Positions 10,606-59,647 of a stretch of 64,000 bases of DNA are shown here, in pieces. Each line of letters opens with the position of its first letter. The first letter of the stretch is position 1. The notes beneath the pieces were generated by a model. It made no database searches. It had not been told where the DNA came from and saw only the letters and a list, made by a program, of their open reading frames with translations. The stretch is from a virus (taxonomy: Duplodnaviria; Caudoviricetes): IMG/VR virus record IMGVR_UViG_3300032290_001460, positions 32,001-96,000 of that record, one strand, 5' to 3'. The position numbers and the translations under genes are program-made.

Positions 10606-13600
10606 ATGAGCCAAGGAACATTTGAAGACATCCATTTTAAGGCGATGAATGGCCAATTCAATATAGATGAGGCACAAGGAATCGTTGAATGTTTCGTTGC
10701 CGCCGTAGGTAACAAAGACTCCGTGGGTGACATCGTCGCATCGGGGGCATTTACAGAAAGTCTCAAGCGCCGCAAACCGCGCGTTGTATGGGGACACAAC
10801 TGGAACGACCCCATCGGTAAGGTTCTAGAAATTTACGAAGTACCAGCACACGACCCGCGTCTCCCAGGAAAAATGAAGCAAGCAGGAGTGGGCGGGCTCT
10901 ATGCGAAGGTTCAATTCAACCTTGCAACAGAAAAAGGTCGCGAAGCATTTGCTAGCGTCGCTTTCTTTGGTGGAGACCAAGAATGGTCTATCGGCTATAA
11001 GACTCTCCAAGCAAACTTTGACTCCGCCATGCAAGCAAACGTTTTGCGTGAAGTTGAACTGTACGAAGTGAGTCCAGTTCTTCATGGTGCAAATCAACTG
11101 ACAGCCACAATTTCCGTCAAGAGCGACGAAGGTGAAAAGTGCCACAGTCCTGCTATGGGCGCTGGAATGCCAATGATGCCAGCAGTAATGCGTGCTTTTA
11201 AACCAGGGATTCCAGAAGGTGGCCCATCGCGCATTTCGGCAAGAATTGGCTACGACGTTTCTAGTCCTCGTGAAGATATTTTTGCAGAAGGCGAAGCACG
11301 CGAACTTAATCGCGAAGAAATTTATAGACTTGAAGAAGAACTGATGTCACGTTCTAATAATCGTCTCAAGATTATCTCCGCAACTGAAAATATGGTCACA
11401 TTCCATCGGATGCTCCCCAATGGTTCATCAACGGCTTACCGTCTCCCATACCACTACGATACGGCTGTTAGACAATACATGTTTGGCAAACCAGAGAAGA
11501 TGGGACAAGGTCCTAGCCAGCCTCAACCACAAACAGTCGTTCCTATGCAGATGCCCAGTATGCCAATGTCTGTCAAGCCGAATGCCGTCAGCCCATATGC
11601 CATGGTTAACGGTGGATACGATGGCGAAAAATCCGTTGAAGAAAGACTCCATGAAGTTATTGCTGGCTTAAAGTTGCCGCTCTTCGACGATGAAGTAGCA
11701 GAAAAATCTCAACAAGATAAAATTGAGGAAGTAGTGAATCTTCTTCAATCCTATATTGAAGAGAAGAGCGAACCCATGCGTGTCATTATGAAATGTGAAC
11801 CGCATCAAGCGTTCCGTGTTAAGGAACTACTCGACCCGGTAATTGAGTATCACGGACTTCAGGCAGAAGTCAGTGAAAAGGGCGTCCATCTTTCAGGGAC
11901 ATTCAATGATGAAACACTCGATGCACTATATGCGTCAGAGAAAAGTATTCAACGGATGTTCATGAAAGAGGGTGGTTGGGGAAAAGATAACGGCCCTACG
12001 GGGCCGACCTTCGAAGTTGAAGTAAAAGCCCTCGGAGGCCGAGTTGGCCAAAGAATCGGTGGAGGCCTGAGTGCTGCACCACCAGGGATGGTTTGGGTTG
12101 ACGTAACCGGAGCCATAGATGGCGATAGCGATGGAATAGTTTTTGAGGGTACGCCTATGCAGCGTCCCATTATTCCTCGTGCGATGATTCCCAAGGTGCA
12201 GGCGTCTATACTTCAACAGACTTCCCTCCCCCGCGCTATGGAAATGGAGCGAAATAGGGTTCCTAAACCATCTGTTTCGCAAGAAGATTCCAAACCACGT
12301 TTAAATCAGGTTCCTAAAAAGAATGAATCAGATTCAGTGGTGCCTTCTAAGCCTATTCCAAAAATAGACGACACTATTCCAACACCCAGTAAGGCTCCTA
12401 AAAAAACTCAGGGGCGCAAATCAAGAAAAAGCCCTCCTACTAATCCGAATATATACGACCCGTGGGTTTATAGAAATTCAGGAACCGAGCGCATTCTTGG
12501 TAACGAATTCAGCATCATTACGCCACTAGATGAAATTATTAACTCTGTTAGTTCTAGAAGTAAAAAATTGACTCCTAAAGAAATTATTGACAATTATGCT
12601 TATTTCCTTAATTATAGAGGCCTAGACACTCAACAAGTTTTTAAAATTTTTGAAAACCATGGTTATGTTAATACTGAAAAAGTCAACCAAACCATATCTG
12701 ATGAGTTGAAATTTGCGATAGATGACATTATTGCGGCAGGCGGAAGAATTGTTTTTGCACAAAATAATCTTCTAATTAATTTGGGTGGCAATAAATTAAT
12801 AATTGATTTATTAGATAAAGATAGTTATAGTAATGTTAGACAGCAGTTAAGTATGCCCTTGAAGCAATTGTATGTAAAAGAAAGAAAGACAGTAACAAAT
12901 ATTTCGGACTTGTCTCCTAGGTATAATTATCTTAAGCCAGAATTGAAAAAATTAAAAGAAAAGTATGGCGATTATTTTGTTATACGCGCCCTGGATGCCG
13001 GCCATTATTCTGCTGTTCTTTTTGACCCCATCTCTGGTGACCCCCTAAAAACTTATCAATTTAGTGGTAGTCCACGAAGTACTTCTAACCTTTTAAAAAA
13101 CCTTTCTTCAGAATTTACAAATGCAGCCGTAGTTAGAAGATTTGAATCAGCAAAAATATGGAAGCCAGCGCGCGAAGTCATTGATAAAGTACCGTTGAGA
13201 CCAGCAAATGAAGGGGAAACCCCAAAATTCGGTCCGCTGAGTGGTACTTCTAAGTTGGTTCAGATTTTTTCTGAACTAGGTTTTTCGCCAGACAGTAAAG
13301 AATATCCTAATGCTCTCGTTGAATTAGAAATACATGATATTGGTGACGGAAAATTTGGTGTATATGGTGTAATCGTAGATGAAGATGGCATAGAACACCT
13401 CGTGAGCCAGGAGCAGGATGGTCTTGCAGATTCATTAGATTTTCTTCGTGCACTAGGTTCAGAATATTCTCAGTCGCAATTATCAGAAATGAGAAGTGCT
13501 CATCTAAGACGAATGGGGGTCGTTGGTCAATTGGGCGATACTTCTGGGTTGAGTCAAGAAGTTGAAGAAATGAGGGCTGCTCGTGATGAACGAACTTACA

Positions 13601-16600
13601 ATCAGTGGTTCGTTGATGATGGTAGTCGTTCGCAAAGAACACCTACCCTAATTTATAATACTGCCGCAAAATCTATAAGAGATATTTTTGATGATGAAAA
13701 AACATGGGACCCATTCTTTGAAGACCTAAAAGATGTTTTGGGTCATTCTCAAAAACAATCGCAACGCCTACTCGACCTCTACGATGACCCGAACGCTACA
13801 GAAGAGGCTATAACTAATCTTGAGGAATCAATTAGGGAATTAGATGAGCAAATTGCCGCCGTTATTGATTACGCAAAATTTTTAAATGGAGAAAATCGTC
13901 GCGCTCGTCTCAAAAGACTAAAGAATCCTCTTATTAACAAAATGATTGACGAACGTACTGGGGGCGAGTATTCGGATTTTACTGATGCTGAAATTGAAAG
14001 ACTTAGAAACAATCTGACTTTTTCCGAAAATGATATAAGCGATATCTTTGGCGTTGAGGGAAGCGATAAGGCTAGAAATTTCGTTGAATCAATGCAGGAT
14101 GTTTTAGATGATGCGGAATGGTATGACGGCATACTGAGCAGTCCTATAGAGGACGAGAATAACCCTGATTATTTGGAAAATCCATCTCAAGAACTTTACG
14201 ATGATGCTATTAGAAGTTTGAGCATGGAAATTGATTTCATAAAAGATGCTAGAAAGCGTAATCATCAACAAAGACTGGCTATTTCGGATGGTAGCAATTT
14301 ATCCGATGGCACCAGTCGCTCGCAGCGTTCCTTCATTAATGGACGTGGAGTGGGCGAAACTAGGCAGATTTTCCCCAATGAAGACAAACAGGGAACTAGT
14401 AAAAAAATTAAGTACGCTCGTTATGATGGGCGCAAAGAAGAACTGCTGGTTGAATATTCCTCTGGTGAAACCATCACCTATGGTGGAGTAACCGACAGGA
14501 TGGTTTCTGCAGTTGAGAAATCACTAGATGATATTGATGGCGGGATTGACGGGATAAAAGCAGAAGCACGCTATTCTATTAAACCAGATGGACAAATAGA
14601 AGGCAGGGCGGTTAGTGTAGCAACGCTAGTGCAGAGAGATATTGAACGTCTCGAACAATACGATGTTATTACTGCAAAAGATAAGTTATGGATGCAATTA
14701 GCAGCAAATGCCATATTGTCAAATTTTGAAGAACCGCCCGAATATGAACTATTATCCTTGTCTGACCAATTGGCTAATGTGGCAAATAAACTTGCTCGCG
14801 AATATGAAGAAAATTCTGCAGCCCTAAACCTTTTAGAAATTAAAAGTTCTATTGACGACAGAGTAGGCAATGGGCTTGGCGGAACTCGCGGTACACGCAT
14901 GTATCGTCCACTGAAGGATGAAACAACATTAGATTTAACCAATGACGAAATTGGTGAATTAAGAGACGAAATTCAATCAATTCTAAACAAACATGGAGAC
15001 AGAATTACTTTTGCTCCTTTTGCAGAATTTGACAAAGCGTTAAAGGACGCTCAAGATTCAAACAAAAATAATGTAACAATTAAAAATAATTTACATTCAG
15101 CATTAACCGTTGCTTACGATGAACTTTACTGGATGGCTTCACACAGTCAAGCAGAGAAAAGATGGCTCAACCCCATTGGGGAAACACTACTCAATATTGC
15201 TGCAGCATCCGGAAGATTCACCTCCCCACGCCTCAGTGCCAATAGGGGAGACTTCAAGGGCGTCCCATTCAATAATGGCGCACCATCAAGAATGACCCCC
15301 GAAGCACGAACTACCCTCATAGATTGGGCAAACGGAGACGGATTAGGGTTCTATGTTCTAAAAGACATACGTGATTCTTATCGACTCAGGAATGGAAATC
15401 TCACCTCGCGACAGTGGAACACTCTTGCGAACATGTACAGGCGCTTTGGTCCTGGTGGCAGTGACAGAAAAGACTCAAGTAGTAGAAGTAAAAAAGATAC
15501 AGAAATCTACTATGCCATTGTCCCTTCGGACGTCCCGGACCAAATTGACGATGAGGAAGAAGAAAAACCAAAACCCAAGAAGCCAGTAGGAAAACCTGCT
15601 TCAGAGTTACTGCCAGGCGACTTTGATTCAATGACTGCAAAAGAAAAAATTGATGTCATGTTTCAAATTGGACGTGCAACAAAAGATAATCCCGATGGCA
15701 TCGCCCCAGAAGATTGGGACAGACTAATTTATCCCCTAGACAAGGAACTTGATGTAGAAGAAGCAGTACAGAACCAAGCAGAATTCATGGCTGCACAAGA
15801 AGCCGCTGCAATGAGAGGCGAAGTACTAACAGAAGAACAGTTCTACGAAAACAAATCACGTCAAGCGGAATTACACGACAGAAGAACAATACAGCGTGCA
15901 TTAAGTGAATACGACGCTGGACGACCCGAGTTATTGCAAAAACTTGGCCTACGTAGAGAAAACTTTATTATTAAAGCAGATAGAGAATACAAGGCCCCCA
16001 CTAAGCCAAAGCCGTTAGGTAAATGGGCTACAGATTTCTCCATGAAGATACGTTCTCAAATAGAAAAAGCAATTGCCAATGGGCTTGCCGGAGAAGAACA
16101 TCTTGACCCATGGCTATCCATGGAAGAACTTATTAATGACAACGATGGTCTCCTTGATGAAGAAACTATCCAAAACATTATCCCTGTCCTAGAAGAATAT
16201 GTCAGTGCTTATGATGGGGCAGAATTTGGACATCGTTCAGAAGGTAATAGTTATAAACAAGCCAACGACATGATTGAGGAGTTGGAAAATACTCTTTCAA
16301 TTCTTCTTGACCCAACAATAATCGAAGACGATTCCGATGATAGCGGAGATGACAAGAAAGACAGCGACGCTGCCTCAGAAGTTCCAGATACAACTCAGGG
16401 AGTTTCTCTATCCATAGAGGGCGATAGTGGTTCAAAAAGCCGTCGCTCATCATCTATGGCAAGTACTACGGGCAGACAAGACGCTGTTGATTCCGGAAGT
16501 AACCAAATAAATTCCGAAGATAGTAGCAGGAGTATCCGAGAAGTAATCAAATTAGAAGATTTACTTGAAATAGATAAGCGCGAACAATCCGAAGATATGG

Positions 16601-19600
16601 GAGAACCATTCGTTGAGTTATCAAAGGCCCTCGAAAATTGGTTAAATAATCATATTTCAGATATGGGCGGATGGGACAAAAGTCACGAAACTCGACTACG
16701 TAGGCAGGTAGAAGATTTAATTTTGAATTTACGTGGCTTGCGAGACAAGTGGCAGTCCATGGGGACTGCTAAACGAAGCGGAATATTGAGACGCATGAAG
16801 ATGGTTGATGGCTACGAACCGCACCCTCTAACTAAAATGTCACTTGAAGATATCATTAGTAAATCAGAATTACGTATTCACGATGACGGAACTCTGTCTT
16901 TCAAATTGCCTCCCAACCCAATATTGCGGCAACTCATACCAGGCAACAGAAATTATCAAGATGTAGAGTTGCCCACTGCTGAAACTGTTAGTGAAATTTT
17001 TGATAATCTCACAAATGATTGGCGCAGATTAGATGAATTATTCAATTCAATATATGAAGTTTTTGATGAAGATGAAGACGGGCGACGTGGAGCGCGCCTA
17101 AGGAAATACCCTGTCGGCGGGGAAAAACTGCCGCACCACTCCTTGTATCTTGGCAAGTACGCTGAACCCCCGACAGAAGCACCATCTCCGGAAGGGGCGC
17201 TCCAATACCACTACAACGACATTTCTGCTCGTATTCTTCAGTATTACATTATCCCTGAATTAGCAAAAATTAAACGCAATGAAAATCCAAAAATTGGAGA
17301 AATCTCCAACGATAACGACCATTTTATTCATGGATATTTACAGTTATTTACAGACCCGCATGCCTGGCAGGAGATGAGTGCTGTGTTGTCTGAAAACTTC
17401 CGTGTATCGCCCGGCACCATATTGCATGACTTATTGGGGCACTACGCCCTTGGTAATACTTTTGATAGACACGGAGAATATGGAAATATTCTTTCAACAA
17501 TTCAACTTGCTCGCGATAAGAAGTTCTGGCAGAAGTTGCGCGAGATACCAGAACTTTCTGACCTATCCGAAGAGGACAGGGACCTCTACATGCGCGGCTT
17601 GCTCGTTGATGTGGCCGCAAGATGGTTTAATCGTGTCGGTACAGACTCCCCGGATGACGAGAGGAGATTGAAGAAGAAAATAGCGTTCTACGATGGACCT
17701 ATTGATGAACTTCTTGACAAAATCGACCCGCCTAACGAACAATCGTCAAGTTCTAGTCGTTCTACACGAAGAATCCCATTAATCGATGTCGATGATAAAC
17801 AACTTTCTGAGTTAGGTAAAGAATCTATTGATGGTATTGCAATAAGAGAAGAATTTATTAGACCATCTTCTCGTGACGAATTAGAACAATTTGTTTCACG
17901 AAGAAAACCGATAGGTTCGGACCTGCCTGTTGATTTACGCACTGGCGAACCTCGCCGCATGTCTCATGAGACAGACAGAGAGTGGAATGCTAGAAGAAAT
18001 AATTTTTATAGAAACAACCCATGGTTTGACCGGCCCCCTATTGATGCTTCTGAAGATTCCCCTAAAATTGATAGAAATAACGAATTTGGTGATGGAGAAT
18101 TAATTAAACCCTCATATAAATTTAATTTTAAATGGAACCAGTATCAAGATTATACTGATGAGGAATTAATAGATAAACTTAAATCAGACAAAAAACCTTC
18201 CAATACTTTGGTGCATGAATTGTCTTTACGTGGATATGAAGTTAGAAAAAAAAGAGAATATGATTTAGGTGATTTTAGTGGTAGGGAAGGATATGACTAC
18301 ACATACTTCTTTGCTAAGCCAATGGATGAAATAACCCAAGAGCATCTTGATAGAAGAAAATCTAAATACAATCCAGTTGATGAAACACAAAAAATAGATG
18401 AGCCGTCAACCAGCATAATTCCTACATTGGAAGAAGACGTTGTTGATGAACAGGATTTTGTTGAGCCAGAAGAATTCCCATTAAAGCCGAAACAGCCCAG
18501 GGTTCCTCGTCCTCGACCCGGTACCAACACCGTGAATATTGGTGGCAATAATTCGGGAATCATAAATCTCGGCAACAATGTGACAATTGATACTGGCGAC
18601 ATAAATGTTTCTAATCAGGGCAGTAAGATTACTATTATTAATGGGAACAAGGTTACTGTTGATGCCAATACGGATGTATTGAGTATGCCATTGAAAAAAG
18701 TTGATGAAGAACTTGCTAGCATACAGAAAGATTTAGCGGAACTTAAAGAAAGAAGAGTAAAGGGCAGTATTTCTGATGCTGATTATGCTCAGCGACGCGT
18801 AGATTTGGCTAATAGGAAAGTTGCTCTCAAATTAAAGAAACATTCCGTCCCTGATGGTGATGCAACCAAGGGCACACCCAATGTTTCCTATATTGGCAAC
18901 AGTTCAAGGTCAACCAGAAATATTGATTATTATCGTAGGGAATTTAATCTTTCTCCAGAAGATTTGGAATTCATCAAATATACCAATGCCCCAGATTTAT
19001 TTTTGCGTGAAGAATTTGGGATAGACGATACAGCCATAGCAGACATTCGTTCTTATGTGCCGCCGTTGGATGTCATCAAGGAAATAGATTCTTTAACCGA
19101 TGATGATGTTAGATTCCTTGAATCTTACGATGGTATTGTTTCACAAATTACTGAAGAATTTAATTCTTTTGTAACTCGGACGATGGCCGAACGTCTTCAG
19201 GCTATTCAATACATAGGAAATTCTAATCTCCCTGAATTGGAAAAACAAGAAAACATAAAAGAAATTGATGATGCATTTAATGAATTATTAAAAGTTAACA
19301 GTGAAATACATTTCGATAGGCTGAATGATGCCGTACTATATACGGCACCTTTAAATTATCGCGGTTTTGGTTGGAGGATGACCCCAGAAAGAATTTCTTC
19401 ACTTGGCTTACCTGAAGGCTATGAAAACAAATTAAAGTTCAATCAGGCTACTCGCATTTGGGAAATGATGAATGGACTGGGCTTTGACTGGGACGAAATC
19501 GAAGATTTCACTGGTTTGACTTTTGATGAATTGAAACCCCTATTCCCACATGTCCGAATTATCGGGATGATACGCGAACAGGAGAAAAACTCTTTAAATA

Positions 19601-25954: not shown

Positions 25955-25986
25955 TTCATAGTTCTATTTAGGGATTGGAGCCCGGT

Positions 25987-36591: not shown

Positions 36592-37249
36592 GTTTGAAAT
36601 GGACGAATTTGAAGTGAAGGCTCCACAAGACGCCATCTTGGATTTACCACAAGAAAAATTTACAGGCGATGTACTCAAGGGCCGTGGACCCCGGCGAGGC
36701 AATCTGGAACGTCTCCTTCGCTACTGGCGTCCCATTATGCGCAAACCAGGCGGCTTTAGGCGATGCAAAGTCATCCTGGCAGACCATCCAGAACTGTATC
36801 CATTAAATAATATTTGCGCATGGCTACACCATGAAACTACAGGCTTATGGCCCAATGAGGGGTGTCATCACCCTGGAATGAAGAATTGTAAACGTAAACT
36901 GAAGAAAGTTTTCAATGGTTCTAAGTGGAATGACAAGGAATGGGATTCCATGATGAATCGTCGGTTCAAGCCACAAGGTAAGTCGTTGCCATTTGATGAT
37001 GAGATGTTCTTTTCTGATTCTTGGCATACAAAGACGGCCATTATTGTTATCCCTGGCGAAAATCATGTCGTGACACTCGATGACATGGCTCATGCAATGA
37101 GAGTTCTGAAAGATTTTTGTGAGATGGAATCAGATTTTGTTGAATTTTTGCGAAACAACGACAACTGGGACATGTTAGGAGAAGACGGTATGGGGAACAT
37201 GATGAAGTCACTCGTACCGCTGGACGAGGATTGCGGTTGCGATAAATGA
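36584..37249 (+). CDS. Phage head-associated protein with Cys/His motif
   Basis: GN.ERL.RYW, GGFRRC, CAWLHHETTGLWP: a motif set I recall from phage capsid-maturation region proteins. Alternative start 36572. Confidence 0.65.
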   Translation: MDEFEMDEFEVKAPQDAILDLPQEKFTGDVLKGRGPRRGNLERLLRYWRPIMRKPGGFRRCKVILADHPELYPLNNICAWLHHETTGLWPNEGCHHPGMKNCKRKLKKVFNGSKWNDKEWDSMMNRRFKPQGKSLPFDDEMFFSDSWHTKTAIIVIPGENHVVTLDDMAHAMRVLKDFCEMESDFVEFLRNNDNWDMLGEDGMGNMMKSLVPLDEDCGCDK

Positions 37250-49370: not shown

Positions 49371-49406
49371 CAATAATTTTACTTATTGCCAAGGAGGAGG
49401 TGTGTT

Positions 49407-50996
49407 ATGAAATACGAATATAGTTCTACTAAAAATAAACTATGGTTAAAGACTTTGCCAAGAAAAGTTAGATTACTAATGCCTACAATAGGTAAGAAAT
49501 CTCTTGGTGGTTCTATTGGAAGGGCTGGAGAACCTTTTGACCCCAATGCGTTTGATGGTGATATGGATGCCTTGGTCCAAGAAGGAACCCCATGGGAGCG
49601 CCCAGCAACACCATCTGTTCCTAGGGGTGCTCGCAATATCGTGAAGCCTTCTATTATGCCGATTGAACTAGAAGGAGTGCGTTCTGTTCAGACCCCTAGT
49701 AGTTCACGTTCAGCGCGAGGCCCCTTGAACTTACCCGACCCATTGCCGCCCCCATTAGAGAATGATGCCGTCGTTGATGAGTCTGGATTTGATTTCGTTG
49801 ATTCCCTTCATGCAATTGTTGAAAGGAGCCCTAAGAAACTTGGGTTAAGAAGTCAAGAGTTACAGACGTTGAAGAAGATAAAAGATAGAGACTCAGATAC
49901 AGAACTATGGGAAGTTTCTGATTTTCTTGACAATGAGACTATTCGTTCTGAATTGAAAAAACATATCTCCGAACGCATTGGGAGTAAGTTTGCTGAGAGA
50001 GCACGCGAAGATGACGACTTTTTACAAAGTTTGCTCTTGAGTTCAATTGCCCCTACTCATGGCTTATGGTCGGATATTACTGAAGCCCTTAAAGGCGATG
50101 ACATTGAGGAAAAGAGACAGAAGTTACAAAAACTTATGTCTGGCACTATGGATAAAGTTACTCCAAGTCAGAAAAGTTTTATTAAAGAGTCTATTGAGTG
50201 GCTATCTGATAGAAGTAAGAAGAAATCTGAATCATTTGATAAAAAAATTGATGTTTTGGCAATTAATAAGGCTAGTGAATATATTAACGAGTGGGCTAAT
50301 AGTTCTAATAATTCTCCTCGCTCAATGGCTTTACAGCGCATGGCCATTCAGGAATTCGGCTTGGAAGATGGAAGTTACTATCCAGAAGATTTGTTACCTC
50401 TTTCTGGGCAGAGTCTTAACGCTCAATCTATGAAACAAAGAACAGACGAAGAAGTGGACATGAATGGGATGCTTCAACGCGAATTCCTGCGCATACAGTA
50501 TGAAGAAACTCAGAGAATGCTCAAAGAACTCAATGTTCAGTCATTGTCTGTTGCAAGAGGTATGACAGTTGGCGAGAATAGTCAACTCATAAAAGATATG
50601 AATTCCACCAATCCTGATTGGAAAGAAAATAATGTTGGGGTAGAGAAACCTCTTACATTACGTCCGCTTTCTTCGTGGGCTACAAAATCATGGGAGGCTA
50701 TGAAATTTGCGTCCCCCCTGGAAGAGGGTAACGAAAATGTTCTTGCAGTAGCAAACGTACCCGCAGAGCAAGTCTTATCCCTCTCAACAACAGGGATTGG
50801 ATGTTTGCCTGAGTGGGAAGCAGTTTTAGTGGCGGCGCCGGTGAATGCCAGAATATTCAATATGCCAGAGAATATTGATGATGTTGAGAATGCGGAAGAA
50901 TGGTTAATGGACCCAGCGTCATACGAAGAAAATTCTGACTTTGACTTAGATTCACTCTACGACGACGATGACGATGACTTTGACTACGAAGACTAA
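49407..50996 (+). CDS. DGDxDG-tag protein with C-terminal R-S-E type ADP-ribosyltransferase-like domain
   Basis: KSLG..FDPNAFDGDMDALVQEGTPWERP; SSSRSAR; VARGM (R), LSSWAT (S), LPEWEAVL (ExE). AGGAGG lies upstream of ATG 49407; track start is 49386. Confidence 0.72.
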   Translation: MKYEYSSTKNKLWLKTLPRKVRLLMPTIGKKSLGGSIGRAGEPFDPNAFDGDMDALVQEGTPWERPATPSVPRGARNIVKPSIMPIELEGVRSVQTPSSSRSARGPLNLPDPLPPPLENDAVVDESGFDFVDSLHAIVERSPKKLGLRSQELQTLKKIKDRDSDTELWEVSDFLDNETIRSELKKHISERIGSKFAERAREDDDFLQSLLLSSIAPTHGLWSDITEALKGDDIEEKRQKLQKLMSGTMDKVTPSQKSFIKESIEWLSDRSKKKSESFDKKIDVLAINKASEYINEWANSSNNSPRSMALQRMAIQEFGLEDGSYYPEDLLPLSGQSLNAQSMKQRTDEEVDMNGMLQREFLRIQYEETQRMLKELNVQSLSVARGMTVGENSQLIKDMNSTNPDWKENNVGVEKPLTLRPLSSWATKSWEAMKFASPLEEGNENVLAVANVPAEQVLSLSTTGIGCLPEWEAVLVAAPVNARIFNMPENIDDVENAEEWLMDPASYEENSDFDLDSLYDDDDDDFDYED

Positions 50997-51005
50997 GGTA
51001 AACAA

Positions 51006-51227
51006 ATGAGTAAAAACAATAAACCGATATTCGTCAATGAGAATACTTTAACCAACAGGCAATTTGACTTAGATGCAAGCAATCTTGAAGAGTTGGCAAG
51101 ACTTATTGGGGTAGCGAAAGATAGCCCTGAATTTGACGAGTATTTAACTGAGGCAAATAAACTATCTTGGGTAGAAACCGCCCCTAAAGATATTCGGGAT
51201 GCCATTAGGGCACGCGAAGTAAAGTAA
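51006..51227 (+). CDS. Small hypothetical protein (candidate immunity/partner)
   Basis: 73 aa, AAGGT Shine-Dalgarno, follows the ART-like gene. Confidence 0.6.
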   Translation: MSKNNKPIFVNENTLTNRQFDLDASNLEELARLIGVAKDSPEFDEYLTEANKLSWVETAPKDIRDAIRAREVK

Positions 51228-51236
51228 AATACTACA

Positions 51237-54173
51237 ATGCGCCCCCGTATACGTTCCACGAGATTCTATCTTCCTTCAACGAAAGCCCTAGGCGGCTCTA
51301 TTGGTCGTCTCAATGAACCTTTTGACCCAGATGCCCTCGATGGGGATGAGGATGGCATAGTTCAGGATGGTACTCCTTGGGAGCGCCCGGGAATACCTGG
51401 AACGCCTAGTATCTCTGGTGGCAAGATGAGGGATGGGTCAAAAAGAGAGATTACTGCGTCCTCTGATATTGACAACACTGAGGAAATCGCCACGCCCAAT
51501 GATTCCTCGGAACAAGTCCCAGTCTCGGATATTACCTTAGAAGATATCGTTGATGAACTTTTAGAAATTCTAACTCCCGAATTCTTAGAAGAAATAAATA
51601 AATTTGGGGAAGAATTTATGTTTGGCTCTGGTCGCAATGTTAGAAAAACAGTTCAAAACGTTGATGAGTGGCGCGAGATACAGGATGCCGAGTTAGTTAC
51701 CGTTGACGTGTTCGAACCAGGGGAAGGACCGGGGGAAACTAAATACCCCATTCCAAAAGGGAAATACACCATAGGCTCACCTTCGATGATGAAGGCAGAA
51801 GAGCGAATTAGGGATGTTGGGATGAGGGTCGTCCAAGGATTGATGAATTTTCTTTCTGGTTCTAGGGAGAATAGAAAAAAAATGCTCGAAGAGGCAAGGG
51901 GCCGTCTTGAAGAGTACAGAGAGACTCAAAGAGAAGTTACTGAAAAACTTGGGCTTGTTACCTGGGCTAGAAAATGGGAAATGCGTTATGCTGATGAAGA
52001 TTCAAAAGAAAGGGGTAATTTTGCGAGACAACTTTATGACACGGCTAAAGAATTATTTGGTAATCATCCAGACTTGAGCCCGGATGCTGATTTTAATGAA
52101 ATTGCAATGACTAGGTCTGAAGATGTGAACTATATTGTCAATAAATATCTTTTAAATTTACTTCAGTCAGATGTTTTCAAGGCCATCGATGAAGAAGATG
52201 GGGAAGAAAGTAATATTTTTGTTAATCAGATAAATAGGCTGAAAAAAAATATTAAAGAATATGAAAAATCTTCTCGTGAAATACCGGGAGTAATTAAAGA
52301 GGACTTAGTGAGATTGCAACAATCACTTGATGAATCGATGGCTGTTAGGAAGAAGTTGATTAACCAATTAAATGATGTTGCCACTAAGCCCATTGACCCA
52401 ATATACGATGATGAAATCATTATAGAAGATTTGACTACTGAAAGTGGAAAAGAATTTTCTAGAATAATCAATGAAGAACTATTGCCTATTTCAAGAAAAA
52501 TACTTCTACAGTATCGAGATATAGAAGTAAAACTAGATGAAGAAAAAATGGATGATGTCAAACGTCAAACCGGCATGAGCCATATTGACGCTAGGGATTT
52601 AGGGGAAATTATTAATTCCGGTGGCGCCGTAATTCCATCTAAAGTAAATTCGCGAGCAGTTACTGCAAATGAAATTATGGATGAAATTAGCCTTTTGCAA
52701 AACGCCAAAATTTCTGAAGTGATAAAAGATATTGAAGAAAGAATAGTAGAAACTGAACGTCCAGCACTGCTTCGTAAAATATTTCCTACAGGATATTGGA
52801 AGTATGATTCAAAAACTAAAAAACCTGTCAGAAATGCGCGAAGAGAAGATGGCTCTCTAATTTTCGCCACTCCATTGACCGTGCTGTTTGCGGGCAAATC
52901 TGGCAATGGCGTGATAAAAGAAACTTTTCAAAAAGCATTAAAATCTTTTGAAATATCCAGCAAGGATATTGATGCTTATTTAAATTCATATCATGTATCA
53001 GATGAGAGTCGCGATAATGCTATGTCTCTTTTGGGGCGACGTACTGAAATAATTGACGAGATGCAAACAATTTTACGTGATGTTTTTGAAGATTTGGAAA
53101 AAAATTATCCTGACTTAGCAGAGCAATATATGATGGGTGGCTTAAATGCCCTGAAAGAGATTGCTCGCAAGGTGCCAGAAAGTAGCACTAGTCAAAAATG
53201 GAATGACTATATGCAAAAAATGGTAGAACTAAATAAGGAATTACAAAAAATTTTATCTGATTTAATAGATGTGCTTTCTCCTGAAGAAAAAGATAAATTA
53301 AAAAAATTGCGGGAAGATTTAGAGCAGGCAAAAGTTAAAAAAGGTGATTATATTCTAGAAAAAATTTCATCATTATCAGCAGAAATTGATGAATTATTGG
53401 CTGATAAGCCACTGACATTTTCTCAAGAATTTAAAAAATCTTTAATTAACATATTAGAAGAAATGGGCATATCTCCTTCAAAAGATTCTTTATTGGACGT
53501 AAGTAAGCCAACAATAGGTGATGGCTCCATGAAGACGACTGAAGCAAATGTTGAAAAATTTAAACAACATATTAGTGAAATTGTTCCCGAACCAATTATT
53601 CAGTTATTAAATCTTTTTCTAAAAAATAATCCTCATACGGTTCGTGCATTAACTGTCGATGAAGTCGGTGATAGGGCTGGCCATTGGAAGAAGGGTTCTC
53701 GGCAGATAGCAACAAATTTTGAGCAAAAAGTAAACTTGCATGAATTTATGCACATGATGTCAACTTATTTTCCGTTTGCATCAATGGCTGAGCAAGCGTT
53801 TCTCTATAACCGCGGCTTAAGGGGCGAGAAAGGTTCTTCCGTAGAAGAGAGAATGGTTGATTTAGACTTTGAAGATGCCGTCTACTGGCAATACTCGGCG
53901 ACTCTTGGTATACGACAGCCAGCACCCGGAGTTCGCGATTATAGGAGTAGTGACTATTATATAGAAGATGAATTTGATAAGAGATATACTGGGCGAATCT
54001 ATCCTAGAGATGAACCAGAAGATTTTGCTACAGAGGTTCTCAGCACTGGAATCGAAGTTTTAGCAGACACCTATACCGGTACGGACTTTCCTGACTACGA
54101 ACATCTTGCTTTAGTGATAGGTGTCCTAATAACTGCTGGTATCATGTCTAGGGATGGAATAGCAAAAATATGA
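51237..54173 (+). CDS. DGDxDG-tag protein with long helical region and C-terminal zincin
   Basis: KALG..FDPDALDGDEDGIVQDGTPWERP at the N-terminus; HEFMH (53739)...D.F..RYTGRIY...TEVLSTGIE. Confidence 0.75.
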   Translation: MRPRIRSTRFYLPSTKALGGSIGRLNEPFDPDALDGDEDGIVQDGTPWERPGIPGTPSISGGKMRDGSKREITASSDIDNTEEIATPNDSSEQVPVSDITLEDIVDELLEILTPEFLEEINKFGEEFMFGSGRNVRKTVQNVDEWREIQDAELVTVDVFEPGEGPGETKYPIPKGKYTIGSPSMMKAEERIRDVGMRVVQGLMNFLSGSRENRKKMLEEARGRLEEYRETQREVTEKLGLVTWARKWEMRYADEDSKERGNFARQLYDTAKELFGNHPDLSPDADFNEIAMTRSEDVNYIVNKYLLNLLQSDVFKAIDEEDGEESNIFVNQINRLKKNIKEYEKSSREIPGVIKEDLVRLQQSLDESMAVRKKLINQLNDVATKPIDPIYDDEIIIEDLTTESGKEFSRIINEELLPISRKILLQYRDIEVKLDEEKMDDVKRQTGMSHIDARDLGEIINSGGAVIPSKVNSRAVTANEIMDEISLLQNAKISEVIKDIEERIVETERPALLRKIFPTGYWKYDSKTKKPVRNARREDGSLIFATPLTVLFAGKSGNGVIKETFQKALKSFEISSKDIDAYLNSYHVSDESRDNAMSLLGRRTEIIDEMQTILRDVFEDLEKNYPDLAEQYMMGGLNALKEIARKVPESSTSQKWNDYMQKMVELNKELQKILSDLIDVLSPEEKDKLKKLREDLEQAKVKKGDYILEKISSLSAEIDELLADKPLTFSQEFKKSLINILEEMGISPSKDSLLDVSKPTIGDGSMKTTEANVEKFKQHISEIVPEPIIQLLNLFLKNNPHTVRALTVDEVGDRAGHWKKGSRQIATNFEQKVNLHEFMHMMSTYFPFASMAEQAFLYNRGLRGEKGSSVEERMVDLDFEDAVYWQYSATLGIRQPAPGVRDYRSSDYYIEDEFDKRYTGRIYPRDEPEDFATEVLSTGIEVLADTYTGTDFPDYEHLALVIGVLITAGIMSRDGIAKI

Positions 54174-57100
54174 ACATGAACTGGACTTTCACAATAGGGG
54201 ATAAAGACTATTCCGCCACTTATGACAATGCTTCTTTTGTTACGGATTCTCCACTCGTTGAATACTACGTGAACAAATTAATCGATGACAGAACTGTCGT
54301 CGAAATAGGCGATGTAGGCCCAATGGCTACCGCATCCTTTGAAACCGATGCTCACGCATGGGGAACAATAACGCACGCTATCAGGAAACTAGCCAACATA
54401 GGCTCAGGCAAATATCCATTCTCACCATTAAACGGCGAAGACGAAATAGTTAAACCTGATGATAAAGAACCAAAAACCAAGTCACTAGGACCATCCCTTG
54501 GTGGCGTCAACGAACCATTTGACCCTAATGCTTTCGATGGCGACAACGACGGCATGGTGCAAGACAGCACTCAATGGGAAAGACCTGCACTACCAGGTCA
54601 AATTCCAACAGTAGTGTCGCAAGAAGTTGCTCGGCCTGTGAGTTTAACCTTCACTGGGCCAGACCCACGAATTTTATATCCAGACATGGTAGGCAAAACT
54701 GGCTCTGCTAGATATGGGAATTCCCCATCTATACGCATAGAGCATCCTCTATCTCCAGGCAATGACATTGCTTTTGTTTCCGTTAGAGACTTAATGAAAC
54801 TCCCTGGGAATATGCCAAATGATGATGGGGAGATTATTTTTGAAGAACGCGTTGAAAAATTGAGACAAGAACTTCTATCGAATGGATTCCGAAGCCCGAT
54901 TGATATTGCGTACGACCCGACAACGGGCAGAGCATACGTATCAGAAGGCAACCATAGGCTTCATGCGGCATTTGCTGCAGGATATTCCTATATTCCTACA
55001 ACTATTTTTCCTATGCGAATTAATGAGAATCGTCCGGCTTTAATCATTACAAAAGATTTAGATAAATGGCCGTGGAGAGAAACCGCAGATGGCGTTTACT
55101 ACAATAAAAATCATATGAGGGAAAGATACTTGGAGCGAGAAGATGCTTGGCCCCCATTCGCCCCATCGGAACAAGATAAGAAACATATACCAAACATGAG
55201 AATTCACCCGTTGTGGGTTCTTCCTCAAGGAAGTATTGCAGGAGAAATTAGCGATAACGGTGTTTGGGGTCCATTGCAGCCAAATGCAATAGAGCCATTG
55301 ACGGACACTTCGCGTTCCAAGCGCGAATTCAGTTTCTTCCCTTCCCTAGGAAAAAAGAATAGGGTAAATAAGAAGGCCTTAAGCCAAGTCGGTCCTTATC
55401 CCGTTGTTGGTGATGTTGACTATCCTTCTACGACGCATAGGTTTAAAGTACATGGTTATGAAACATTATGGGCAGTACCCGAAGTTGGTGGACTCAACCC
55501 TGGAGAAATGCTACTTATCAGAGATTATTCAGATGAAATAAAAAATTTTCATCACATTGAAGGAATATCTGATGGATTAGTCCGTATGACAAAAAGTGGA
55601 CAAGTATTATTCACAATTTTGTCACCCGAAGAATCTGTTGAATTACGTGAAAGTATCAGCACGGGGAAGCCTCTATCCGCATCCATAGAACAGCGCATAT
55701 CAGACAGGTTTGTAAAAATACCTGGTGAAGATGGAACCATTGATGATGCTATTGATTTTATGTACTCGATACTTCCATCAAATATAACTAAACCTAAACA
55801 GATTTCTTTGTTTGAACAAGAGGTTATAGACGAATTCACTTATCCGGATGGGCAAAAAACAATAGTTACAGTGGATGCACATGCTAGTCACACTCAAAAA
55901 TCAATGACTTTTTGGAACGGCCATACACCTACTGAATCACTTGAAACAATGCGAACGTTCTTTCATGAACATGGCCATATGATTGACCCAATACCACCTA
56001 TGTATTACATGGTTCATCCAACTGCTACGCAGATGCTGGGCGACTCTCCCGAAAAGCCAATGTATTTCAGCGATTCAATAGCATGGGGGGCTGCAGTGGA
56101 GCGTGATAGCCAGGTCGCTCATAGTATGATTTTAAAAAATGCATTAATTCATCCTGAAACAAGAACACGCATGAGTTTTATTTCTGGCAAGAAGGCTGTT
56201 AGTTTATATGGCACAACTGATGTTCGGGAGGATTTTTCTGAAGCATTGGCAATGTATTTGATAGATAAATTCTATGGCAGTTTTGTTATAAATGAAGAAT
56301 TGGGCACAAACGTCAGATTTGCTCAACTGTTTCCAAATAGGGCACAATTTTTTGATGACGTTATAGGAACATTGTATAGTTTTGATGAGCCTCTTGAAAA
56401 TTTAGTTAAAGCGATAACTACGGGTGATTTCAATGCTATTAATAGTTCACGCTCTAGTCGTATAGTTCCTTCTAAATCAACTTTAATACCTGATGGAATA
56501 TTCGATGTCGAAGAGCCACGATTTGGAAGCGTTCAAAAATTAGTAAGATATACCATGGACAACCCAGAGATAAATGTTTTTCTTTTCAAAAATGCCGCGT
56601 TAAGTCCAAGTAGTTCACAAAAAACTGAGTTTGGTATTGCCGTAAAACATTTAGTCCCAAACAATTTACTTAGTCGCGATGGACACTTTATATCGGTTGA
56701 TATTTCCGAAAGTGAATTTGAAGAGTTATCAACGAGCATGGTTCTTGGTAATGGAATCCCACAGGAAATATCTAATAGAATTAATTCAAAATTAGATATT
56801 ATTCGTAATCAGATGCAAAAATTGCATGCAGTTTTACCGGATGGCGCTGTTTCAAAAATGAGTTTCATACATGCAAGTGAAAAAAGTCTATTCTTGCCAT
56901 GGGTGGATGTAGACGGCCAGGCTGTTACGCAAATTTCTAACGGCCTTGGCCAAGAACCACGCAATTTTATTGCAATTTATAGTTTAAATAGACATACCGA
57001 AAGTCATTTAAGCGATGTATTAGCGCACGAACTCGGGCATATCCTTGATAGAGATGGTGGGCGAAACTATAAAAAATCATTTGTTAATGAATCTAATAGA

Positions 57101-59647
57101 TGGCTAAAAGCAAGAGCAAGTGATAAAAAAACTTTTGAAACATTTAGACAATTACTTGATGACGAAATACTTGTTCCAATTTCTAGAGATTCTGCCGTCC
57201 CAAATATACGTAAAGGGAAAAAAGGAATAACAGAATATGGCGGCACAAGTGATAGTGAAGATTTTGCTGAAACAATAAAATTGTATATATCAGACTTGCG
57301 GAATAGTGGTTTATTCAGAAATAAAGATACTAATGAAATGGTCCGTTTTTCGGATATGTTCCCTAATCTTCATGGAATGCTTAAAGAATTTTTATCAACA
57401 TACGAAACTAATACAACCGATAAGGAAGTTATAGAAACAGTAAGCGACAGTTCTTTCTCACGGCGTTCTAGTGGGTTTTCTAACGGGACGTGGAAAATCG
57501 AAGGAAATGTCGTGCAGGAAATTAGTAAATGGCCCGATAAAAATACACCTCAGGGTAAAAAAATCCTTGATAGTGCCGAATTCAAAACACAGGTGGCATT
57601 GCTGGATGCAATGAATATTTGGCGAGGTAGTTTTAGTGACAGTAGAATGTTGGCTCGTATTCTTGGTGGTCTCAAGCCTCCAGAGGGAACTCAATACGTC
57701 GACGACAGGTTTATGAATATAGCACGAGTGCTTGATGGTGCTCTTGAAAATGCTCCCACTATTTCTGGTCAAGTTACTATCGCCGGAAAATCCATACCAC
57801 TCCCCCTGTATCGTTCGATGCGATTAACGCCAGATGTTTTCGATAGCATAAATTTTGGTGTTGGCAGCGAATTGAATTTTAGGGCTGCTTCAGCAGCATT
57901 TAGGGCCGATGTTGCGGCACAGTACAACATTGATGAATTAACCAATTTAGGTATTCGTGGAGGAATGCCTAAGAAAATCATTGTTCAGTTGCCCAGTGAT
58001 ACCAAGGGGCTAGTTTTTGATGATAGAAAAACTATCGTTGCGGACCAATTTAATGAACGCCCAGTAGAAGCAATCATTCGTGGAAACTTTAGGGTCGCTT
58101 CAGTCAAAACAATAACTATGCGCGACCCAATAACACGCAAGGATATTGAACAAGAAATTCATGTTATGGAACATATTGAACCGCCGACAAGTTCTCGTTC
58201 CACTAGACGTAAATATCACACAACGAATACACGACTAGACATCGGCGACTTTATTGTTTCACCTCGTAAGTCTGGCAAGGAGAATGAAAGTTCTAGTCAG
58301 ATAGATTTCAATGATTCTTCAGTGGTTTACGCATCTCCCAATTTTGCTGATGTGACTAGAGGAATCGAAGATTTTGCTAGTTCTGGCAGATATAAAGATA
58401 GTAACGGGCCTCTCTATATGTATCAAATTGAGGACACATCTCCAGCGAGCCTTAGTAGCGACACGTTCCCCCGTAATGAACTATCAATGACGTCATCTAG
58501 GGTGGAACGAGGCAAGGTCACTGGCATTTATAAGGTTTCCGATGATGGCGATGCTTTCATGTTTTCTGGTGGCTCGCGTTCAAGACGTAAGGGCGCAGGA
58601 GTACCAGCATCCAAGCCTAAAGATACACGCAGAGCAATAAGAGGCAAAATTGTTTCTGGTCGTCAGGGAATTGACGAAGATGGACTTACTCCAGAATTCA
58701 TTCAAGCCATGGAGTCAAAAATGGAAGAGATGGGTCTTTCTAGGGAAATGTTTCAAAAGACTCTTGATGATTTTTTAAAAACTTTAACTAGAACTAATAT
58801 CGATATTGGTAAAAGATGGTACCCATTCGTTAATCGTCGAATGAGAGATATGGTCGAAGATTTAAATAATAGATATGGTACTTCTATAACTTTCGAGCAG
58901 GGCGCCGCCGTAATGGCAGCGTTATCTCCTTTGAGGGAAGTGAATGAAAATATCAAGGCGGCAAAATTAATTTTAAGAACTTTTGCTGCTGATGAAGATT
59001 TTGAGATAACAGAAGAATTATTAAGTAAGTTAAAAATTTCAAAAAAAGAAGTTGAGATTTTCCTTGCTCGTGCTGGCGATGGAAAAATTAGACCTTCTGA
59101 ATTTAACGATGACGAAATAGAAATACTCATAGGTTTGAATCTTGGTTTTCTTAAAGCCGGAAGTGTTGATGGTCTTGCGAATATTAAAAAATCAATTTTT
59201 ATTTTGAGAGATAAAAATTCAATAGATGATGTGCTTAAAGGGCCCAAAGTCCGTTCTTTTTATTCTAATATCGTAGACCCAAATGGAACTAGAGTGACGA
59301 TTGATACATGGATGTATAAAATGATGGTTCCTCCAGATGTAAAAATATTATATAAAGGGCAAGAATTAACACTTGCCGAACATTTGAACATAAAGGGACC
59401 CGACGGCAAGAAAGTAAATAACGTTCAAGCGATGTTCCAAGCAACGCCACAAAGCAAAAAATTGGGTGGACAAATTGGTTTATACCCCATATTTGCTGAA
59501 TTGATAAGAAATGCAGCAATAAAATATAATATTCCTCCCTCTGCTCTTCAGGCAGCACTTTGGGAAAGGTTCAGGATGCAACTTTCTAATTATCAGCCAA
59601 CTGATTGGGATGAAGTTGCTGGACTTTTTGATTTGGATGTAGAATAA
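54170..59647 (+). CDS. Polyvalent protein (1825 aa): tag, ParB/Srx, two zincins, VIP2-like ART, Arr-like module, helical glycosylase-like domain
   Basis: KSLG..DGDNDGMVQDSTQWERP; SEGNHRLHAA (54947); HEHGH (55964); HELGH (57026); LYRSM..VEAIIRGNFRV; YHTT..L.IGD.I..VYAS..YMYQIE; WYP..AAVMAALSP..L.GPKVRSFYSNI..VTIDTWM..LQAALW. Confidence 0.8.
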   Translation: MNMNWTFTIGDKDYSATYDNASFVTDSPLVEYYVNKLIDDRTVVEIGDVGPMATASFETDAHAWGTITHAIRKLANIGSGKYPFSPLNGEDEIVKPDDKEPKTKSLGPSLGGVNEPFDPNAFDGDNDGMVQDSTQWERPALPGQIPTVVSQEVARPVSLTFTGPDPRILYPDMVGKTGSARYGNSPSIRIEHPLSPGNDIAFVSVRDLMKLPGNMPNDDGEIIFEERVEKLRQELLSNGFRSPIDIAYDPTTGRAYVSEGNHRLHAAFAAGYSYIPTTIFPMRINENRPALIITKDLDKWPWRETADGVYYNKNHMRERYLEREDAWPPFAPSEQDKKHIPNMRIHPLWVLPQGSIAGEISDNGVWGPLQPNAIEPLTDTSRSKREFSFFPSLGKKNRVNKKALSQVGPYPVVGDVDYPSTTHRFKVHGYETLWAVPEVGGLNPGEMLLIRDYSDEIKNFHHIEGISDGLVRMTKSGQVLFTILSPEESVELRESISTGKPLSASIEQRISDRFVKIPGEDGTIDDAIDFMYSILPSNITKPKQISLFEQEVIDEFTYPDGQKTIVTVDAHASHTQKSMTFWNGHTPTESLETMRTFFHEHGHMIDPIPPMYYMVHPTATQMLGDSPEKPMYFSDSIAWGAAVERDSQVAHSMILKNALIHPETRTRMSFISGKKAVSLYGTTDVREDFSEALAMYLIDKFYGSFVINEELGTNVRFAQLFPNRAQFFDDVIGTLYSFDEPLENLVKAITTGDFNAINSSRSSRIVPSKSTLIPDGIFDVEEPRFGSVQKLVRYTMDNPEINVFLFKNAALSPSSSQKTEFGIAVKHLVPNNLLSRDGHFISVDISESEFEELSTSMVLGNGIPQEISNRINSKLDIIRNQMQKLHAVLPDGAVSKMSFIHASEKSLFLPWVDVDGQAVTQISNGLGQEPRNFIAIYSLNRHTESHLSDVLAHELGHILDRDGGRNYKKSFVNESNRWLKARASDKKTFETFRQLLDDEILVPISRDSAVPNIRKGKKGITEYGGTSDSEDFAETIKLYISDLRNSGLFRNKDTNEMVRFSDMFPNLHGMLKEFLSTYETNTTDKEVIETVSDSSFSRRSSGFSNGTWKIEGNVVQEISKWPDKNTPQGKKILDSAEFKTQVALLDAMNIWRGSFSDSRMLARILGGLKPPEGTQYVDDRFMNIARVLDGALENAPTISGQVTIAGKSIPLPLYRSMRLTPDVFDSINFGVGSELNFRAASAAFRADVAAQYNIDELTNLGIRGGMPKKIIVQLPSDTKGLVFDDRKTIVADQFNERPVEAIIRGNFRVASVKTITMRDPITRKDIEQEIHVMEHIEPPTSSRSTRRKYHTTNTRLDIGDFIVSPRKSGKENESSSQIDFNDSSVVYASPNFADVTRGIEDFASSGRYKDSNGPLYMYQIEDTSPASLSSDTFPRNELSMTSSRVERGKVTGIYKVSDDGDAFMFSGGSRSRRKGAGVPASKPKDTRRAIRGKIVSGRQGIDEDGLTPEFIQAMESKMEEMGLSREMFQKTLDDFLKTLTRTNIDIGKRWYPFVNRRMRDMVEDLNNRYGTSITFEQGAAVMAALSPLREVNENIKAAKLILRTFAADEDFEITEELLSKLKISKKEVEIFLARAGDGKIRPSEFNDDEIEILIGLNLGFLKAGSVDGLANIKKSIFILRDKNSIDDVLKGPKVRSFYSNIVDPNGTRVTIDTWMYKMMVPPDVKILYKGQELTLAEHLNIKGPDGKKVNNVQAMFQATPQSKKLGGQIGLYPIFAELIRNAAIKYNIPPSALQAALWERFRMQLSNYQPTDWDEVAGLFDLDVE

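Follow-up and report, generated by a model that had tools for sequence, protein, structure and literature searches.

Giant polyproteins of an uncultured tailed phage share a tag and a lineage-specific linker motif at module boundaries

The stretch of viral DNA analysed here (the window; 64,000 nucleotides, positions 32,001 to 96,000 of IMG/VR record IMGVR_UViG_3300032290_001460) is part of a single 106,308-bp virus contig (Duplodnaviria; Caudoviricetes). Between the genes of its portal protein and its major capsid protein (MCP), it encodes giant polyproteins that share a tag and are punctuated by a short linker, here [SGT]-S-R-S-x-[RK]. Comparison with five long relatives (86–132 kb; together with this genome, the six genomes referred to below) showed that the linkers mark module boundaries, and gave good support to a tag and linker grammar that has its own reader in each genome. 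As judged from their sequences, the giants are probably loaded into the capsid and cut apart. A fuller reading, in which the polyproteins are carried in the capsid, addressed there by the tag, cut at the linkers by an S78-family prohead protease and injected as separate products, is in our judgement evenly balanced between right and wrong.

RESULTS

The portal–MCP gap is filled with giant open reading frames

The portal gene (8410–10497; 695 aa; PF04860, E 2.4e-47) and the gene of the HK97-fold MCP (62000–63319; 439 aa; PF05065, E 1.1e-45) are separated by 51,502 bp, in agreement with the ∼51.5 kb given in an earlier interpretation of the letters alone (the sequence-only reading). Coordinates are those of the window and on the + strand unless stated otherwise. 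According to the open reading frame (ORF) listing, all genes in the gap are on the + strand and encode, in order, proteins of 4421, 598, 3362, 174, 225, 673, 539, 2740, 536, 978 and 1825 aa. The four giants (4421, 3362, 2740 and 1825 aa; P0001 to P0004 below) and the several ORFs of 500–1000 aa (598, 673, 539, 536 and 978 aa) are present as that reading had described. Tag- or linker-bearing proteins take up ∼45% of the genome. The genes flanking the polyproteins, encoding the large terminase (TerL), the portal, the S78 protease and the MCP, place them in the virion-gene context of a portal–terminase phage.

A linker motif confined to the polyproteins

The motif SRS.[RK] was found in 23 copies in six of the gap proteins (9, 4, 1, 4, 1 and 4 copies), compared to 1.0–1.2 copies expected from shuffles, among which the maximum was 5. 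No copy was found elsewhere in the 106-kb genome. The six proteins and the up to nine copies in each were already noted in the sequence-only reading, and this count stands. Ser, Gly or Thr precedes the motif in 22 of the 23 copies, and three degenerate linkers (GSKSRR, SSLSKK and SSFSRR) lie within the same proteins as the strict ones. Chance or low complexity as the source of the motif is ruled out by the shuffles and by its absence from the rest of the genome. Among the copies, Ser is encoded by both AGY and TCN codons and Arg by both CGN and AGR codons; this synonymous variation indicates selection on the peptide and rules out a DNA-level repeat as the cause. The linker-to-linker segments have a median length of 301 aa (interquartile range 153–485), and no linker falls inside any Pfam domain.

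The nine strict linkers of P0001 are SRSKK at aa 650 (12553–12567), SRSQR at aa 1007 (13624–13638) and aa 1237 (14314–14328), SRSKK at aa 1626 (15481–15495), SRSIR at aa 1974 (16525–16539), SRSTR at aa 2384 (17755–17769) and aa 2767 (18904–18918), SRSMR at aa 3007 (19624–19638) and SRSKK at aa 3595 (21388–21402). P0002 carries SRSQR at aa 1576 (30700–30714), SRSMR at aa 2076 (32200–32214), and SRSQR at aa 2190 (32542–32556; an orthologous site that we compared across the six genomes) and at aa 2371 (33085–33099). In P0003, SRSQR at aa 592 (42666–42680) and SRSTR at aa 2253 (47649–47663) lie outside a pair of SRSKR linkers, at aa 1526 (45468–45482) and aa 1875 (46515–46529), that form the N- and C-boundaries of an ArdC cassette. 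The P0004 linkers are SRSKR at aa 381 (55310–55324), SRSSR at aa 760 (56447–56461), SRSTR at aa 1342 (58193–58207) and SRSRR at aa 1469 (58574–58588).

The linker is replaced lineage by lineage at orthologous sites

The tag, together with the protease unit that heads P0001, is encoded on 306 uncultured viral contigs of IMG/VR; matches in the isolated-phage collection were limited to the S78 domain and to one small domain in the protein encoded at 60529. The five long relatives have MCPs 73–84% identical to the one described here and keep the same order of terminase, portal, protease unit, giant ORFs and capsid gene, with portal–capsid gaps of 23–45 kb. A backbone of untagged proteins and the tagged families are kept in these genomes, while the cargo varies widely and its modules are found in different chains in each genome.

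The exact SRS.[RK] motif is kept only in near-identical contigs. Other lineages have SKS[ST]T, G-[MLFV]-RSR, GLAS, GMAS, GF[AS]S, GLRS, xLRSS, GARS or RLAS. Each of the five long relatives has one motif of its own (SKS[ST]T, G-x-RSR, GLAS, GMAS and GF[AS]S), which is 11- to 480-fold more frequent than in shuffles and hardly occurs outside the tagged or head-module giants. When the motifs are counted in every genome, the resulting matrix is strongly diagonal, and even the positions that a pattern leaves free are uniform within each genome. When aligned on the invariant Ser, all the variants fit [GS]-[S/M/L/F]-[R/K/A/S]-S-x-x.

The site at aa 2190 of P0002, which precedes a module conserved in the six genomes, reads SRSQR, SKSTT, GLRSR, GLAS, GMAS and GFSS in them, and the N-boundary of the ArdC cassette undergoes the same lineage-by-lineage change. 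Such concerted change at orthologous sites points to one shared, trans-acting protein reader in each genome. Tagged giants encoded far from the head module also carry the linker of their own lineage, which indicates that, irrespective of gene position, tag and linker form one system. Of the ends of homology blocks between genomes, 28% lie no more than 30 aa from a linker, compared to 14% for random positions, and none of 2000 randomisations reached 28%.

The modular chains with a common tag and linker proposed in the sequence-only reading are therefore supported, both features being conserved across the clade while the cargo varies. Among the findings that, according to that reading, would speak against it are relatives that keep the domains without conserving tag and linker. 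We found the tag conserved; the linker sequence, on the other hand, is replaced in each lineage, with its punctuation role kept.

One tag family with variable placement

All-against-all comparison followed by a profile search defined a single tag family, with a long and a short subtype, in six gap proteins. The tag also occurs beyond the portal–MCP gap, as a 1435-aa protein encoded after the MCP has a seventh copy (aa 610–639). The eight proteins with two N-proximal tags of the sequence-only reading thus become six gap proteins and one post-MCP protein with one tag; that the tag is shared was correct, and N-proximal placement holds for some copies but not for those starting at aa 474 in P0001, at about aa 200 in two proteins and at aa 610 in the post-MCP protein.

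In the tag, 45–60 aa in all, a variable spacer separates an initial K-[AS]-[LI]-G box from the sequence [FY]-D-P-N-A-x-D-G-D-x-D-G-[ILV]-V-[QF]-[ED]-G-T-P-x-x-R-P. Three Asp residues (D22, D24 and D26), the Thr and the Arg-Pro pair are invariant in 22 copies, and G27 is nearly so. The D-x-D-x-D-G core has the consensus of a calcium-binding loop, by which it is a candidate for binding calcium. In P0001 the tag is of the long subtype and spans aa 474–530 (12025–12195); in P0003 it spans aa 206–255 (41508–41657) and in P0004 aa 102–146 (54473–54607). The P0002 family has the first half of the tag alone (the [FY]DP[ND]A box) at its N-terminus, without the loop and diverged in this genome, and this half tag may be what the sequence-only reading took for a second tag.

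In an AlphaFold2 (AF2) model of the protease unit, the tag has a low predicted local distance difference test score (pLDDT), in line with the tag being a linear peptide for docking and not a folded domain. The tag profile matched at least 964 clusters at 50% identity (236 with E ≤ 1e-10), with proteins of up to 4980 aa. In these clusters the tag is placed at about aa 10–100, 200–280 or 430–620 (after the protease unit), so that it is not always N-terminal, and the precomputed Pfam content of the tag-bearing proteins is diverse and usually empty. The tag has the same place as in P0001 in 56 of 80 related loci. Every long relative has 3–6 large tagged ORFs, some of them outside the head module, compared to seven tagged proteins in this genome.

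P0001 is headed by an S78 protease unit

P0001 (10606–23871; 4421 aa) starts with the protease unit, which is followed by the tag, by ∼11 modules set apart by linkers and, at the C-terminus, by an array of winged helix-turn-helix (HTH) domains; besides its strict linkers it has two degenerate ones, and it has no HExxH. The S78 (HK97-type) prohead serine protease domain at aa 22–174 (10669–11127; PF04586, E 2.7e-10, 41.1 bits against a cut-off of 21) bears out the fusion of the first giant to a prohead protease that had been read from the letters. Residues 5–173 are matched by 183 capsid maturation proteases of isolate phages. H64 (WGHNW) and S128 (EWSIGY), which by homology we take to be the catalytic His and Ser, are invariant in 34 relatives.

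The protease unit is ∼470 aa long and is usually followed in frame by 600–4000 aa of cargo. In the relative G001 (lineage L005, L007, L008), however, it is a separate gene of 468 aa; its stop codon is followed, after a gap of 23 nt, by the ATG of a cargo ORF that begins with the tag (genome positions 64493–64517). The fusion of the protease is therefore optional. The AF2 model of P0001 residues 1–575, made from an alignment of 34 sequences, had a mean pLDDT of 55. Foldseek comparison of this model with the PDB gave no match at E ≤ 0.001 (T4 gp21 protease was second, at E 0.025), and gave no identity to the two small alpha/beta domains of the unit (∼232–300 and ∼344–454). The MCP has a predicted maturation site FK↓SIGD (the arrow marks the cut), deduced by alignment with HK97 gp5; S-[IV]-G is retained where HK97 has the site K↓SLG.

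The last module of P0001 (aa ∼3900–4400; window 22300–23800) consists of about eight or nine LexA/MarR-like winged-HTH repeats, and similar arrays occur in other tag-bearing metagenome proteins. Two tandem paralogous modules (WLYPDGR[IL]Y ... DAF.DGLIR) lie at aa 3012–3594 (window 19639–21387). They are separated by the degenerate linker SSLSKK, which indicates that the linker-to-linker unit is also a unit of duplication.

Cargo of the other polyproteins

P0003 (40893–49115; 2740 aa) carries DUF3721, the tag, a zincin, a Zeta-like kinase, pentapeptide repeats, ArdC with MPTase and a further zincin, as well as a weak PI3/4-kinase-like match. The ArdC cassette (45483–46514) is located exactly between two linkers. 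Residues 1543–1831 match positions 4–290 of the 297 of the ArdC chain 6i89 (E 4.4e-49), i.e. essentially the whole of ArdC, and the Pfam matches are ArdC-N (PF08401, E 1.1e-29) and MPTase-PolyVal (PF18818, E 5.7e-37). In G001 this cassette is found in a different polyprotein, again with linkers at both ends.

P0002 (25975–36063; 3362 aa) has a conserved N-terminal region with a zincin (HEIGH at aa 727), its four linkers, and a second zincin (aa 3110). It is listed from a TTG codon (window 25975–25990); its orthologues align from an ATG four codons downstream (M-T-G-R...), and by this alignment the downstream ATG is the likelier start. At aa 2195–2370 (window 32557–33084) we observed a helical module of ∼180 aa with one strongly hydrophobic, Gly-rich helix, which lies between two linkers. 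It is conserved throughout the six genomes and, rather than a variable effector, may be a component of ejection that is active on membranes. Pro-rich tracts precede a Gly/Asn-rich, beta-like motif, G-x-N-x-G-I-[IV]-N-L-G-x-N-V-T-[IV], that is common to P0001 (aa 2625–2686; window 18480–18660) and P0002 (aa 914–971 and 2494–2563; window 28715–28890 and ∼33455–33665).

P0004 (54170–59647; 1825 aa) has the tag, two zincins, a C-terminal DUF7178, and one degenerate linker in addition to its four strict ones. Three tagged proteins are smaller. A 539-aa protein (39270–40889) has the tag at aa 200–243 (39867–39998) and the linker SRSSR at aa 299 (40164–40178). A 536-aa protein (49386–50996) has a propeptide-like layout, with the tag at aa 37–80 followed by the linker SRSAR at aa 107 (49704–49718). 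A 978-aa protein (51237–54173) has the tag at aa 14–58, a zincin (HEFMH at aa 835) and no linker.

Taken together, the confirmed cargo comprises ArdC-N with MPTase, a Zeta-toxin-like P-loop kinase, pentapeptide repeats, DUF3721, DUF7178 and the winged-HTH array, and there are nine HExxH modules; PI3/4-kinase-like, KTSC and Peptidase_Mx1/M48 matches are weak. Content of the polyvalent type is seen in P0003, with its multiple effector domains, and in P0001, with S78 and the HTH array. Most linker-to-linker segments matched nothing in the searches. Of the domains called in the sequence-only reading, ArdC, MPTase and the Zeta-like kinase were recovered (Pfam, 6i89), whereas ADP-ribosyltransferase and ParB/Srx had no Pfam match even at E ≤ 1 when individual segments were searched. 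A weak lead towards ParB comes from one Atlas cluster, 26% of whose members have ParB_N.

Backbone proteins and neighbouring genes

The untagged backbone is well conserved in all five relatives. An acidic, Met-rich, scaffold-like protein of 598 aa (24158–25954) has neither tag nor linker, and its C-terminal half is 64–74% identical in the same position. Proteins of 225 aa (36572–37249) and 673 aa (37246–39267) are 56–68% and 47–60% identical, respectively, over their full length, and the portal orthologues are 62–72% identical. Pfam and PHROG searches gave no informative family for the 598-aa and the other mid-size backbone proteins, and the AF2 model of the 673-aa protein (pLDDT 40) was unusable.

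The MCP has an N-terminal delta-like domain of ∼100 aa. The tagged 1435-aa protein encoded after it starts at 63609 and runs past the window end, to window coordinate 67916; it has DUF6321 and a C-terminal zincin. It has a domain of ∼70 aa in common with a 353-aa protein encoded directly upstream of the MCP (60529–61590); in its N-terminal half, the 353-aa protein matches hypothetical proteins from pelagiphages, roseophages and cyanophages. The large terminase (5651–8122, − strand; 823 aa; Pfam scan) has an intein-like insert, a LAGLIDADG/Hom_end homing endonuclease at about aa 300–365. The TerL proteins of the five relatives are 434–447 aa long and cover just 47% of it; by this comparison the insertion is specific to this genome among the six.

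Outside the window, a protein of 1528 aa is encoded at genome positions 17296–21882 (− strand; locus L112:2296–6882). We refer to proteins of this family (∼1500 aa) as tape-measure-like on the basis of synteny and a weak Atlas lead. It has SSRAKR in a Gly-rich stretch, and its orthologues have SKSTT, GMSSK, GLAS (twice), GMSSR and GFASR (twice).

DISCUSSION

The S78 protease as the putative reader of the linkers

In the reading that we place first, the tag would address each chain to the assembling procapsid, and the linkers would be the cleavage sites of one phage protease with a lineage-private specificity. The S78 protease at the head of the first polyprotein would most likely be the reader. 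It would act within the procapsid and cut on the N-terminal side of the invariant Ser, in the manner of HK97 gp4 at K↓S. The ∼30 products, including a complete ArdC, a Zeta-like kinase, a pentapeptide-repeat protein, several zincins and the HTH-domain array, would be kept in the head and enter the cell with the DNA. There they may counter restriction and contribute to host takeover, as the precedents of polyvalent proteins, T4 and P1 suggest.

Several features of the fusion proteins argue for the S78 protease. It is fused in cis and its H64 and S128 motifs are invariant, the chains that it heads are the most linker-rich and have no zincin in five of the six genomes, and their first linker follows the tag by 30–120 aa. 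The invariant linker Ser would also fit the Ser found at P1' in the sites of assemblin-fold proteases, K↓S in HK97 and A↓S in herpesviruses. A further pointer is the S-[IV]-G that the MCP retains at its counterpart of the HK97 site.

Other observations weigh against it. On the S78 tree, the position that precedes the invariant Ser changed about four times between a basic and a small residue, and no S78 column tracks this switch. When motif class was compared with the columns of S78, the portal, the 24158 family and the P0002 N-terminus, the few perfect columns were not above the multiple-testing expectation, and they make no mechanistic sense. The S78 domains are 74–82% identical though the motifs differ strongly. 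The predicted MCP maturation site does not match the linker motif; co-variation of its P1 residue with the linker (K with R/K; N/A/Q with A/S) amounts to one phylogenetic contrast only. By a composition-based disorder proxy, the sequences flanking the linkers are barely above the rest of the cargo (0.67 versus 0.63). In the tail module, the tape-measure-like protein has the motif of its lineage in each of the six genomes. This protein should be out of reach of a protease that is restricted to the procapsid, and the motif reader may also act on it.

Cargo zincins as the reader

The same polyprotein grammar could be read by a conserved zinc metalloprotease of the cargo and not by S78, which we consider unlikely. 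The candidates are the N-terminal zincin of the P0002 family and the HELAH-type zincin of P0003. Cutting would take place in the cytoplasm, in the capsid or after ejection, as proposed for MPTase domains by Iyer, Burroughs, Anand, de Souza and Aravind (2017; PMC5512222), and S78 would be left with MCP-type sites only, possibly including the box K↓[AS][LI]G at the start of the tag. With nine HExxH modules the cargo is rich in such domains; each of the six genomes has a zincin of the P0002 family, and five have one of the P0003-457 family, the sixth contig being only 54% complete. These zincins are only ∼34% identical between G000 and G001, compared to 74–82% for S78, and with such fast divergence they could co-evolve with the motif. 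The marking of the tape-measure-like protein is consistent with this possibility as well, and processing by zincins is predicted in the passages of the 2017 paper drawn on here (PMC5512222).

However, the most linker-rich chains, the protease fusions, have no zincin in five of the six genomes, so that a zincin would have to cut them wholly in trans. Among the zincin columns none was seen to track the motif, and orthology of the P0002-family zincin across the two subclades is below BLAST detection. The invariant Ser, if at P1', fits the assemblin-fold proteases.

Chains that act uncut

Linkers might instead be recognition or passage signals of proteins that leave the virion through the tail, the chains acting uncut; this we regard as improbable. 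The signal could be one for a chaperone or for threading, or a phosphorylation site for co-packaged kinases: S-R-S-x-R resembles a basophilic kinase site and the cargo has kinase-like modules, but the non-basic variants GLAS, GMAS and GFSS are unlike kinase sites. Occurrence of the motif in both the head cargo and the tape-measure-like protein would be explained. Transfer of full-length proteins also has precedents, N4 virion RNA polymerase, ArdC and TraC1 being given as examples in the parts of the 2017 paper considered here (PMC5512222). On the other hand, a motif placed at the boundaries of complete stand-alone proteins such as ArdC, with lineage-private specificity, is what classic pairs of protease and site look like, and a protease is fused in cis.

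That the motif is a functionless by-product of DNA-level repeats, of Ser/Arg low complexity or of recent duplication is hardly credible: the linkers do lie in Ser/Gly-rich stretches and some modules are tandem paralogues, but the copies differ freely in their synonymous codons, and no other part of the genome has the motif. Between genomes, orthologous sites change together, and the feature is kept in 80 loci with at least ten variants of the motif.

Relation to known systems

The system is a variant of polyvalent and capsid-targeted cargo proteins. In the literature searched, we found no description of a protease-headed, motif-punctuated, tag-addressed polyprotein system. Polyvalent proteins are giant chains in which two to fifteen unrelated domains of effector type are joined, among them ArdC-N, MPTase zincins, kinases and DNA-binding domains. 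According to the prediction made for them, they are packaged, undergo proteolytic processing and are delivered along with the DNA, and fusions to assemblin-like peptidases are noted (the passages of PMC5512222 drawn on here also underlie the comparison that follows). The proteins described here resemble them in the hallmark combination of ArdC-N and MPTase, in the joining of unrelated effector domains in one chain and in belonging to a portal–terminase phage. They differ in that those passages describe zincin autoprocessing and hold no shared cleavage motif or addressing tag, and in that the assemblin-like peptidase is there "always at the C termini" and here N-terminal. Moreover, the polyproteins here fill 23–51 kb between portal and MCP, with up to 45–49% of a contig.

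In T4 (internal proteins and Alt, cut by gp21) and in phiKZ and SPN3US (head proteins, gp175/gp245), an N-terminal signal or propeptide brings the cargo into the prohead, the prohead protease cuts this cargo at a short, defined motif, and its products are ejected into the host (PMC10052503, PMC5694885); in SPN3US, 13 of 14 cuts remove N-terminal propeptides (PMC10052503, PMC5694885). The 536-aa protein encoded at 49386, with its tag followed by a linker at aa 107, has the same layout. However, those propeptides belong to single proteins, whereas here the motif occurs up to 19 times per chain, between unrelated modules. The T4 and SPN3US motifs (L/I-x-E, A-x-E) are stable across families, whereas each lineage here has a replacement motif of its own, and the protease here belongs to the HK97 S78 family and not to that of T4 gp21. 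Phage P1 DarB (250 kDa) carries, at its N-terminus, a capsid-targeting signal of 30 residues (PMC9024508). It is likewise a very large anti-restriction protein, with a gene beside those of the portal and the protease and with a short head-loading signal, but in P1 the signal is private to one protein, and neither a multi-gene signal nor internal punctuation is described (PMC9024508).

With HK97 the system shares the protease family and an MCP that keeps S-[IV]-G at the homologous site. HK97 gp4, however, is ∼225 aa long, cargo-free and self-digesting, while the protease unit here is ∼470 aa long and usually fused to cargo. HK97 gp5 is reportedly cut by gp4 at K103↓S104, and gp4 has a C-terminal capsid-targeting region that is able to carry passengers. 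The polyproteins of RNA viruses, with their pairs of 3C-type protease and site, are alike in having a protease in cis, a repeated boundary site and a lineage-private specificity; there is no evolutionary relation, and the products here would be virion cargo of a double-stranded DNA tailed phage and not replication proteins.

Implications

A more general scheme can be put forward tentatively, and we lean slightly against it. A universal DxDxDG address peptide would load any attached protein into the capsid, and a lineage-private pair of protease and site would cut the chains into 15–45 proteins. Modules would move as linker-to-linker cassettes, up to half of a genome would be given to protein cargo delivered with the DNA, and the site–protease pairs would be mutually orthogonal between lineages.

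No member of this large clade, with its 306 viral contigs and at least 964 clusters of tag-bearing proteins, has been cultured. Should cargo prove to be loaded by the tag and the linkers to be cut, we would know of no clearer example of a polyprotein strategy for virion cargo among tailed phages, and the processing and delivery predicted for polyvalent proteins in 2017 would be put to a direct test. In the motif's concerted and lineage-private change, nature provides an experiment on how protease and substrate co-evolve, and the tag together with orthogonal protease–site pairs may provide tools for loading proteins into phage capsids. For the phages themselves, the system, if confirmed, would explain how dozens of anti-defence and takeover proteins enter the cell and how their modules are exchanged as cassettes.

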